In this document: piece after piece, positions 842 through 2,577 of the stretch | Layout of the letters: each line of letters begins with the position of its first letter | Numbering within the stretch: position 1 is the stretch's first letter | Origin: a bacterium | GTDB lineage: Bacteria > UBA8248 | Reading direction: 5' to 3' | NCBI GenBank assembly: GCA_965213685.1 | Contig: CBDBZY010000034.1 | Location: 1 to 31,551, forward strand | DNA: 31,551 bases | Program-made: the position numbers and the translations under genes | The notes under the pieces: model-generated | What the model was told of the DNA's origin: nothing | The model's input: the letters and a program-made list of their open reading frames with translations, nothing else | Databases searched by the model: none

Positions 842-2577
842 GTGCCCACTCTGGATTTCAAAGGCAAATATCACATCTACGCACACCACCTCGCCGTCCC
901 CTACCGGCCTCTGGTGCCCGATCCGGCAAAATCCGTCGGGGATGACGGCGGGAATCCCCCGGAACATTTTACTAGAACGGAGAACGGAGAACGGAGAACG
1001 GAGAGCGGAGAACGGAGAACGGAGAACGGAGAACGGAGAACGGAGAACGGAGAACGGAGAACGTGAAGGCAATTATATCATCCACGGGGACAACCTGCAC
1101 GCCCTGAAAGCCCTCCTCCCCCGCTACGCGGGCCGCGTCCACTGCATCTACATCGACCCGCCCTACAACACGGGCAACGAGAACTGGGCCTACAACGACC
1201 GCGTGAACAGCCCGTTGATGCGAGAGTGGCTTGCGCAGAACAAGCCCGTTGACGGAGAAGACCTCGAACGCCACGACAAGTGGCTCTGCATGATGTGGCC
1301 GAGGCTGTGCCTCCTTCATGAGCTTCTCGCCGAAGACGGGGCCATCTTCGTCTCCATCGACGACAACGAGCAGCACCACCTGCGCATGATGATGGACGAG
1401 ATTTTCGGGGAGAAGAATTTTGTAGCCAATGTCATCTGGCAGAAGAAATACAGTCCGCAGAATGACGCCAAATACTTCTCGGACAACCACGACTTCATAG
1501 CGTGTTATGCAAAAAGCAAAGAAATGTGGCGGCTAAACCTCCTTCCGAGAACAGAGAAGCATAACAGCCGTTATTCCAACCCTGACAACGATCCTCGTGG
1601 TCCTTGGCAATCTAGCGGCCTAGATGTCAAAACATACGCTGCCGAGTATGATTATCCTATAACTGTCCCATCTGGCAGGGTGGTTAGCCCGCCTCCCGGG
1701 AGGTGTTGGCGGTGTCCCATAGAACGATTCCATGAGCTGGTCTCAGACAGCCGAATTTGGTTCGGGCCGAACGGCAACAATGTTCCAAGAGTCAAGCGTT
1801 TTTTGTCGGAAGTGAAGCCGGGTATAACGCCATTGACTATATGGCCGTATGGTGAAGTAGGTCATACGCAAGACGCTACGCAAGGACTAAATCGCATAGG
1901 CGTTGGATTTTCCAATCCCAAGCCACCGACGCTGATTGACCGGATTCTACGCATCGCCACCGACAAAAAACTCCATCGTCCTCGATTCCTTCGCCGGCTC
2001 CGGCACGACCGCCCACGCCGTCCTGGCTCTCAACAAGGAGGACGGCGGCAACCGCAAATTCATCCTCGTCGAGTGCGAGGACTACGCCGACGGCATCACC
2101 GCCGAGCGGGTGCGGCGCGTCATAAGGGGCGTGCCGGACGCGAAGGATACATCCCTCAAAGAGGGGCTGGGTGGTGCCTTCACCTACTGCACGCTGGGTG
2201 TGCCGATAGGACTGGAGGGGATGCTCAACGGCGACGCCCTGCCGCCATACTCCGCCCTGGCCGCCTACCTGCTGCACACGGCGGCCCCCCGCGTCCCCCC
2301 CGCCGGGGCAGACCTCGCGCCTAGGAACGGGGACGGCCTGTTCCACTCGGACGATCAGAACGACTACTACCTCCTCTACGAACCCTGTGCGGATTATCTG
2401 CGCAGCGGCGAGGCGATGCTGGGCGCGGAGCGCGCCCGGCGCATCGAGGCGAACGGGAAGGCGAACGGCAAGAAGGCGGTCGTCTTCGGCGCCGGCAAAT
2501 TCATCGGCCAGCGGGAGCTCTCGGACATGGGGGTCACCTTCTGCCAGATCCCCTACGAACTGCACCGGAAGGGATAG
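842..2577 (+). CDS. mod: Type III R-M methyltransferase (Mod), split by the heptamer repeat tract and a +1 at an A6 run (1965-1970)
   Basis: N-terminus MPTLDFKGK..HH..VPYR; IIHGDNLHALKAL, IYIDPPYNTG (motif IV), HDKWLCMMWPRL, NPKP; after the shift IVLDSFAGSGTTAHAV (motif I); beta-class motif order; res immediately downstream. Confidence 0.92.
974..1063 (+). repeat. Heptanucleotide simple sequence repeat (AGAACGG) x12 plus 6/7 of a unit, inside the 5' part of mod
   Basis: Counted directly; unit 5 (1002-1008) is the variant AGAGCGG. Confidence 0.97.

Follow-up and report, generated by a model that had tools for sequence, protein, structure and literature searches.

A heptanucleotide repeat in the linker of a Type III mod gene: a candidate slipped-strand switch at a site where relatives carry other repeats

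Introduction

The known phase-variable mod genes of Type III restriction-modification (RM) systems carry a coding repeat near their 5' end, whose unit is not a multiple of three nucleotides (nt) and whose length decides the frame in which the catalytic domain is read; the res gene lies downstream. The usual unit is of 1, 4 or 5 nt, and the genes belong to small-genome pathogens. A comparable tract, built from the 7-nt unit AGAACGG, was analyzed here in contig CBDBZY010000034.1 of the bacterial assembly GCA_965213685.1 (GTDB lineage UBA8248), within a stretch of 31,551 nt that is called the window throughout. The tract interrupts a gene that was recognized by homology as a Type III mod, and this gene shares with the known ones the 5' coding repeat, the type of unit, its effect on the frame and the res gene downstream. 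It differs from them in the size of its unit, in its host, with 65% G+C, and in its closest mod relatives, which lie in uncultured metagenome-assembled genomes (MAGs). Moreover, the window locus contains further frame breaks as assembled.

In a survey of REBASE, repeats with units of 1–9 nt were reported in 662 of 3805 Type III mod genes (17%), with almost no expanded units that were multiples of three; environmental species were included, and at least 25 independent origins were estimated (PMC5909438). The same survey reports a Type III mod gene of E. coli with a 7-nt unit, the length of which varies within cultures and the methylated motif of which has been determined (PMC5909438). Like the window tract, this repeat lies near the 5' end of the open reading frame (ORF) of a Type III mod gene, with several candidate starts around it. 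It differs in the sequence of the unit, and also in that length variation (in cultures and among strains) and the motif have been demonstrated in E. coli, whereas the window tract is known from an assembly and is likened to it by unit size and 5' position. In the original prediction, which was made from the letters of the window, the 7-nt unit had been contrasted with known units mostly of 4–5 bp. The contrast does not make it novel: since a heptamer has been published in E. coli and repeats have been published in environmental species (PMC5909438), neither the unit nor its occurrence outside pathogens is new.

Two other systems were useful for comparison. MmyCI of Mycoplasma mycoides subsp. 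capri has (AG)12 in its mod gene and resembles the window locus in having a coding repeat with a premature methylase stop at the observed count; its dinucleotide unit and low-G+C organism set it apart, and bring it nearer in kind to the (AC)13 of one relative described below (L022) than to the window (PMC3498834). EcoP15I (PDB 4zcf) is homologous to the window Mod over both the body and the N-terminal module (E 1.2e-33 with the single sequence and 8.4e-79 with a family profile, from residue 57), and its genes follow the same mod-then-res order, although its Mod has about 55 further N-terminal residues. We know of no repeat tract in the mod gene of EcoP15I.

Results and Discussion

The Heptanucleotide Tract and the Frame of the mod Gene

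The tract was recovered by Tandem Repeats Finder with period 7, 12.9 copies, 97% matches, a score of 173 and the consensus AGAACGG, in agreement with the 12 full units plus a partial unit that had been predicted. Of the 23 tandem-repeat rows listed for the window (31.5 kb), no other array had five copies or more. A pattern of two units, allowing up to two mismatches, was matched 12 times in 974–1064 and once elsewhere in the window, where shuffled sequences gave an expectation of 0.25; the total of 13 matches was reached in none of 100 shuffles. The repeat is real and far beyond chance. The features of the gene in which it lies are as follows.

842..940, + strand: conserved N-terminal module of Mod in frame 2; its first codon is GTG 842, which aligns with the ATG starts of relatives (relatives, tblastn and profile)
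941..973, + strand: unique part of the variable linker, holding the C5 run at 956–960 (sequence reading)
974..1063, + strand: heptanucleotide array of AGAACGG, 12 full units followed by 6 nt; the unit at 1002–1008 is the variant AGAGCGG (Tandem Repeats Finder and pattern scan)
1064..1066, + strand: TGA, the stop of the GTG-842 frame with the unit count as assembled; in the other OFF frame the stop is at 1105–1107 (ORF reading and unit-count script)
1065..1964, + strand: catalytic body of Mod, frame 3, with DPPY at 1155–1166 (PF01555, 1.5e-24; PADLOC PDLC03644 positions 38–345; 72–78% identity to relatives)
1965..1970, + strand: A6 run, site of the second mod frame break, with one extra base relative to the reading of the family (frame arithmetic, codons by eye)
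1969..2577, + strand: C-terminal part of Mod, frame 1, with motif I FAGSG at 1990–2004 and the stop TAG at 2575–2577 (PADLOC PDLC03644 positions 346–541)

The body at 1065–1970 matched PADLOC MTase_III (1.5e-120) and Pfam N6_N4_Mtase (PF01555) and, among the solved Type III Mods, 6k0w (1.7e-44), EcoP15I 4zcf (1.2e-33) and Mbo45V 7dsu. Positions 1–181 of PF01555 fell on 1065–1970 and positions 182–213 on 1969–2574. DPPY precedes the FAGSG motif, which binds S-adenosylmethionine (AdoMet), in the order of the beta class, and the product was classed as an N6-adenine methylase. Judged by these matches to the PADLOC and Pfam models and to the EcoP15I Mod structure, the repeat-bearing gene is a Type III mod, as the original prediction had proposed.

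The survey counted tracts inside the mod ORF with at least three units, where the unit was of 3 nt or more, and for the frame to be shifted the length of the unit must not be divisible by three (PMC5909438). The window tract falls within this definition, with 12.9 copies of 7 nt and a longest perfect run of 8 units. The variant unit, which had gone unmentioned in the prediction, splits the tract into perfect runs of 4 and 8 units. The AGAACGG unit is without a stop in all of the forward frames, each of which reads the same 21-nt cycle and gives the same RTENGER-type peptide, in line with the earlier claim. The possibility that the tract is an assembly artefact was set aside, given its clean 90-nt array and its position at a site where relatives also bear repeats. 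Rfam and tRNA scans of the window returned no match, and thus no RNA element accounts for the repeat.

The frame that opens at GTG 842 comprises 74 codons, runs through the tract as RTENGER-type repeats and ends at TGA 1064–1066, while the methylase body lies in the next frame, which is open from 795 to 2324. This arrangement, and the presence of the C5 run, were as predicted. When the number of units was varied by script and the outcome was read from GTG 842, the N-terminus was joined in silico to the DPPY body with 8, 11, 14 or 17 full units, and all of the other counts tested led to a stop at 1064 or 1105. In this arithmetic, the length of the tract sets the frame of the catalytic domain and the off frames stop early. 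The joined frame still ended at 2322, without motif I, in every joined case. The claim that the frame is restored by the loss of one unit or the gain of two was therefore borne out at the first junction but not for the whole protein, since a second frameshift in mod, and three in res, leave no intact Mod by that route.

A 7-nt unit does not fit the triplet frame, and every gain or loss of a unit through slipped-strand mispairing at replication would therefore shift the frame of the body with respect to GTG 842. The gene would be ON with 8, 11, 14 or 17 units, the N-terminus being joined to the body by an RTENGER-type linker insert, and OFF with other counts, when translation would end at 1064 or 1105; the 12 units present as assembled would correspond to OFF. 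The Type III Res is active only in complex with Mod, and the OFF state would thus abolish methylation and restriction together. We infer that the length of the tract changes in vivo, switching Mod and Res and giving a mixed population. A downstream regulon (phasevarion), in which ON and OFF cells would differ in genome-wide methylation and in the expression of a set of genes, is pure conjecture; the predicted toggling of methylation across the genome is likewise hypothetical.

Recurrence of Repeats at the Mod Linker in Relatives

A scan of one genome per species yielded 80 relative loci with 56–78% identity over the body, mostly from MAGs and from many phyla. A repeat was considered to be frame-shifting when it was a mononucleotide run of at least 9, a dinucleotide array of at least 5 units, or an array of at least 3 units of 4, 5, 7 or 8 nt. 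The linker was defined as the 60 nt before the body in the 80 loci. The frame-shifting repeats were distributed as follows.

Linker: 5 frame-shifting repeats in 4.8 kb
Rest of the mod body: 1 frame-shifting repeat in 118 kb
Remaining DNA of the loci: 61 frame-shifting repeats in 802 kb

The enrichment at the linker had a Poisson P of 2e-5, uncorrected for kinship. The five repeats were G11 in L004, G10 in L018, (AC)13 in L022, G12 in L031 and G9 in L032. The N-terminus was out of frame in three of these five relatives versus none of the 74 without a repeat (Fisher 1.3e-4). In L018, L022 and L031 the linker repeat was the only break in mod, and res was intact in L022 and L004. Because repeats recur at the linker in relatives, and mod is broken there only where a repeat exists, a slipped-strand switch is the best reading of the window locus. 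We hold it to be rather probable, on these comparisons, that the heptamer tract is an ON/OFF switch of this type in the linker of a Type III mod gene.

A quick maximum-likelihood tree was calculated with 80 rows, including the window; L029, which has an in-frame stop at codon 38 of its mod body, was left out. The six repeat-bearing rows, the window among them, required six changes on this tree, at least four of which were forced by well-supported branches. According to the tree, linker repeats are of more than one origin. All six rows fell within one well-supported set of 32 rows, and none within a clade of 43 rows formed mostly by Burkholderiales-type Pseudomonadota.

Additional cases were found among the protein relatives. 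P0178 (573 amino acids, 80% identical over the body) was seen by eye to begin with an unrelated start peptide, followed by a 5-residue repeat in nine copies, in place of the N-terminal module. The peptide points to a repeat with a 5-nt unit in the linker of P0178, a 15-nt unit being also possible. P0254 reads the N-terminal module out of frame (by eye). A search with the 74-residue N-terminal ORF gave 22 matches, namely the window itself, five N-terminal fragments of the family without a repeat and 16 unrelated ORFs made only of repeats. The five fragments consist of the N-terminal module alone and lie in other contigs. The 16 unrelated matches (P0274, P0279–P0281 and P0283–P0294) are short ORFs of RTENGER-type repeats, which means that AGAACGG-type heptamer arrays are also present in unrelated contigs; one of these ORFs is recorded as a hypothetical protein (partial) from Photorhabdus laumondii.

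A broader proposal can be made only tentatively, and is more doubtful than the switch itself. The linker may be a convergent hot spot at which at least four kinds of repeat arose independently (G tracts, present in two lineages, (AC)n, (AGAACGG)n and a probable 5-nt unit), in bacteria represented only by MAGs and belonging to several phyla, and stochastic RM switching would thus be common in large-genome, high-G+C, host-associated symbionts and not just in small-genome pathogens. Many of these genomes belong to lineages that we take to be sponge-associated, Poribacteria for example. In a full-text literature search, the recurrence of different repeats at the Mod linker was not seen described.

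Other repeats and breaks were noticed in the mod regions of these relatives. L009 has a G9 run at +1091 of the mod body (about 7092), the only long frame-shifting repeat inside a mod body in the 80 relatives, and its Mod ORF is shortened at this run to 422 residues, versus about 540. Upstream of the mod start, an 11-mer in 8.7 copies was found in L057 (5683–5789) and a 19-mer in 18.9 copies in L032 (5411–5777); the unit family of the latter recurs in the same genome (L031 12480–12821, and downstream in L032). In L004 the mod frame changes close to the 3' end of the gene (about 7128–7170), although the G11 linker tract is in frame.

The N-Terminus of Mod and the Linker

The following features were located at the 5' end of the gene.

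769..797, + strand: promoter-like site 5' of mod, TTGTCC, 17 nt, TAGAAT, with TG before the second hexamer (consensus scan only)
827..832, + strand: Shine-Dalgarno-like AGGAGA, 9 nt before GTG 842 (read by eye)
942..944, + strand: ATG in the frame of the body, possibly used as an alternative start; the resulting Mod would lack the N-terminal module (ORF 942..2324)

A module of the form LDFKGK...HHL.VPYRPL...KS was found in 79 of the 80 relatives, 102–180 nt 5' of the body, and in 76 of these 79 it shared the frame of the body. The Mod proteins of relatives were aligned by tblastn to 842–937/955 in frame 2, where the GTG-842 frame encodes the module. In a profile built from 53 full-length relatives, position 3 was aligned to residue 57 of the Mod structures of EcoP15I and H. 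pylori, and the N-terminal module can therefore be regarded as an old, conserved part of Type III Mods. Since the module is present in relatives and is homologous to that of the solved Mods, GTG 842 was taken as the real start; as far as homology can place it, the true N-terminus of Mod is at this codon. ATG 942 was set aside as the start of a normal Mod, because its product would be without the conserved module.

The tract occupies the sole non-conserved stretch between the N-terminal module and the catalytic domain. Of 120 close protein relatives, 105 allowed the distance from the motif to the body to be measured by patterns, and it ranged from 33 to 85 residues. In an AlphaFold model of the relative P0160 (mean predicted local distance difference test score, pLDDT, 89.2; predicted template modelling score, pTM, 0.85), residues 27–40 were without any helix or strand of three residues or more. 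Going by the alignments and by this model, the insertion site is one that tolerates changes in length, and an in-frame tract would add a hydrophilic RTENGER-type insert to the linker coil. In L019 an in-frame 12-nt repeat was found at the same place of the linker, and therefore not all linker inserts shift the frame.

These data also bear on a simpler explanation, in which the tract is an insert of fixed length in a tolerant linker, without a regulatory role, and Mod is possibly made from ATG 942. This codon does open the frame of the body 5' of the tract, and the linker does accept inserts, as in L019. However, the window carries a 12.9-copy, 97%-identical array of a 7-nt unit that is intrinsically unstable in frame, and the expanded tracts reported in Type III mod genes have almost exclusively units that are not multiples of three (PMC5909438). 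Furthermore, a product begun at ATG 942 would be without the module that is kept in 79 of 80 relatives and in the solved Type III Mods, and no good ribosome-binding site, or spacing for one, was seen by eye before this codon. We regard a tract without any switching role as quite improbable.

The res Gene and the Surroundings of the Locus

Downstream of mod, one further gene of the system was identified.

2585..5119, + strand: Type III res, collinear with relatives and split over four frames, with breaks near G3 3505–3507, G4 3928–3931 and C4 4649–4652 or 4663–4666 (tblastn with intact Res, PADLOC, Pfam ResIII)

The stop of mod (2575–2577) is followed on the same strand by the ATG of res at 2585, which is the mod-then-res arrangement, and the same order was found in the relatives L001, L003 and L005. 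PADLOC REase_III PDLC03653 was covered over positions 1–846 of 883 by four collinear pieces (1–323, 330–451, 467–714 and 739–846). Both parts of a Res, the superfamily 2 helicase-like ATPase and the C-terminal nuclease, were recognized: Pfam ResIII was matched at 1.5e-12, and the nuclease family RE_endonuc weakly (E 0.0023, 18.2 bits, below the 23.4-bit cutoff). Compared with the PDB by sequence, the window Res gave no match to the Res of EcoP15I and matched only Hel308 helicases, with E about 0.009.

The RM module lies between moaC and dcd. The G+C content was 0.543 at 1001–2000, versus about 0.65 elsewhere in the window, and the flanking genes (moaC, dcd and that of a peptidyl-prolyl isomerase) showed no shared synteny with the 80 relative loci. 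Given the low G+C and the unshared flanks, the RM module (800–5200) looks like a horizontally acquired island.

Frame Breaks Outside the Repeat

When the locus was compared by tblastn with intact relatives, mod was found in three frames (842–955, 1065–1964 and 1969–2574) and res in four (2585–3505, 3492–3929, 3925–4644 and about 4640–5113). The breaks at A6 1965–1970, G3 3505–3507, G4 3928–3931 and C4 4649–4652 or 4663–4666 each consist of one extra base (codons by eye). The pieces of mod and res are collinear with relatives, without in-frame stops or larger deletions, and their identity of 52–81% is similar to that between intact relatives.

Frameshifts in the rest of the window were mapped by Pfam on separate reading frames. 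In gpsA, which encodes glycerol-3-phosphate dehydrogenase (19056–20173, minus strand), positions 2–52, 52–94 and 92–157 of PF01210 lie in three successive frames, with breaks at or near the G6 run 19908–19913 and the C6 runs 19772–19777 and 19809–19814. The Lhr-type helicase gene lhr (minus strand, 28281–31544, with its 3' part at 27844–28488) is frameshifted twice near its 3' end: its WH4 domain is split (positions 12–56 and 49–84) around the C6 run 28194–28199, and a further shift lies upstream of WH4. By frame arithmetic, the window has eight single-base breaks beside the repeat, seven of them net +1 and one -1. About 18 other window genes gave full-length Pfam matches, and the breaks are thus clustered.

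Among the errors that remain in long-read assemblies, homopolymer indels are reported to be the most frequent, and they are reported to give rise to false pseudogenes (PMC8812927, PMC12007338). As single-base homopolymer expansions break the housekeeping gene gpsA without any other damage, these breaks were attributed to residual errors of the assembly. The gpsA breaks are probably assembly indels. For the other breaks of the RM locus, of which mod has one and res three, homopolymer errors of the assembly are the most likely cause, rather than true mutations.

If the breaks in mod and res were real, the RM system would be dead and the repeat would switch nothing. Under this explanation both genes are true pseudogenes in a decayed locus, and the array is the relic of a switch or a neutral microsatellite in a dead gene. 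The clustering favors it, with five frame breaks in the 4.3 kb of mod and res while about 18 window genes are full-length, and so do the lower G+C of the island (0.543) and the absence of flanking genes common to the relatives, as for acquired dispensable DNA. Inactive res genes often adjoin phase-variable mod genes. However, single-base breaks of this kind also affect gpsA and lhr, the pieces of mod and res retain the collinearity and identity of intact relatives, without in-frame stops or larger deletions, and each of the four breaks of the locus outside the repeat adds a single base to a short homopolymer, as is usual for the errors left in long-read assemblies. Decay of the locus was accordingly considered unlikely.

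Another explanation accepts the switch and questions its state: the gene would be truly ON, and a one-base error in 941–1063 (for example, C4 read as C5) or a miscounted tract would have made it appear OFF. The eight other single-base breaks of the window speak for it, seven of them being net +1 like the offset of the repeat. Published assemblies have also been reported to misstate the length of repeat tracts, the published tracts having been found shorter than the measured ones (PMC5909438). On the other hand, with roughly one break per kb locally, the 125 nt in question should hold some 0.1 errors (an estimate), and an error in exactly 941–1063 thus has a chance of about one in ten. Of every three unit counts, two are OFF in any case, and three of the five repeat-bearing relatives are also out of frame. 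A miscalled state is hence a rather remote prospect. OFF by unit count is likelier than a one-base error, about nine to one under even priors, although the call is not secure. The earlier statement that the gene is currently OFF holds in so far as it is out of frame as assembled; the state itself is insecure, with gpsA and lhr broken in the same single-base way. In practice, without reads the OFF call in the window cannot be separated from assembly indels.

Several points weigh against the slipped-strand switch. As assembled, the genes are not intact, with mod in three frames and res in four, and the right unit count alone gives no intact Mod. The offset of the repeat is itself +1, and one extra base anywhere in 941–1063, such as in the C5 run, gives the same offset; the unit count and the frame are not secure in an assembly that breaks gpsA twice and lhr twice. 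The variant unit that interrupts the tract should reduce slippage. Regarding the relatives, the heptamer unit was found in none of the 80 loci, a protein database search with the body plus the repeat translation gave a best relative that was 83% identical and did not cover the repeat, and no tract-bearing ortholog was present among the short ORFs from the search with the N-terminal ORF. The G9–G12 tracts are error-prone to sequence, which makes their in-frame or out-of-frame state uncertain, and those of L004, L031 and L032 may share descent.

Significance of the Locus and Other Repeats of the Window

If the length of the tract truly changes, the bacterium would randomly toggle a whole RM system, which would alter its barrier to phages and foreign DNA and possibly also the expression of genes that depend on methylation. 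Such a mechanism is textbook knowledge; what the locus adds is the finding of different repeats at one linker in uncultured lineages, together with the practical caution on OFF calls given above. This pattern at the level of the family predicts that mixed tract lengths and partial methylation should be found in existing long-read metagenomes.

Finally, a perfect 15-nt tandem repeat of 2.5 copies was detected at 24143–24179, at the 3' end of groEL (minus strand), where it encodes the usual Gly-Gly-Met tail and is an ordinary feature of this gene.

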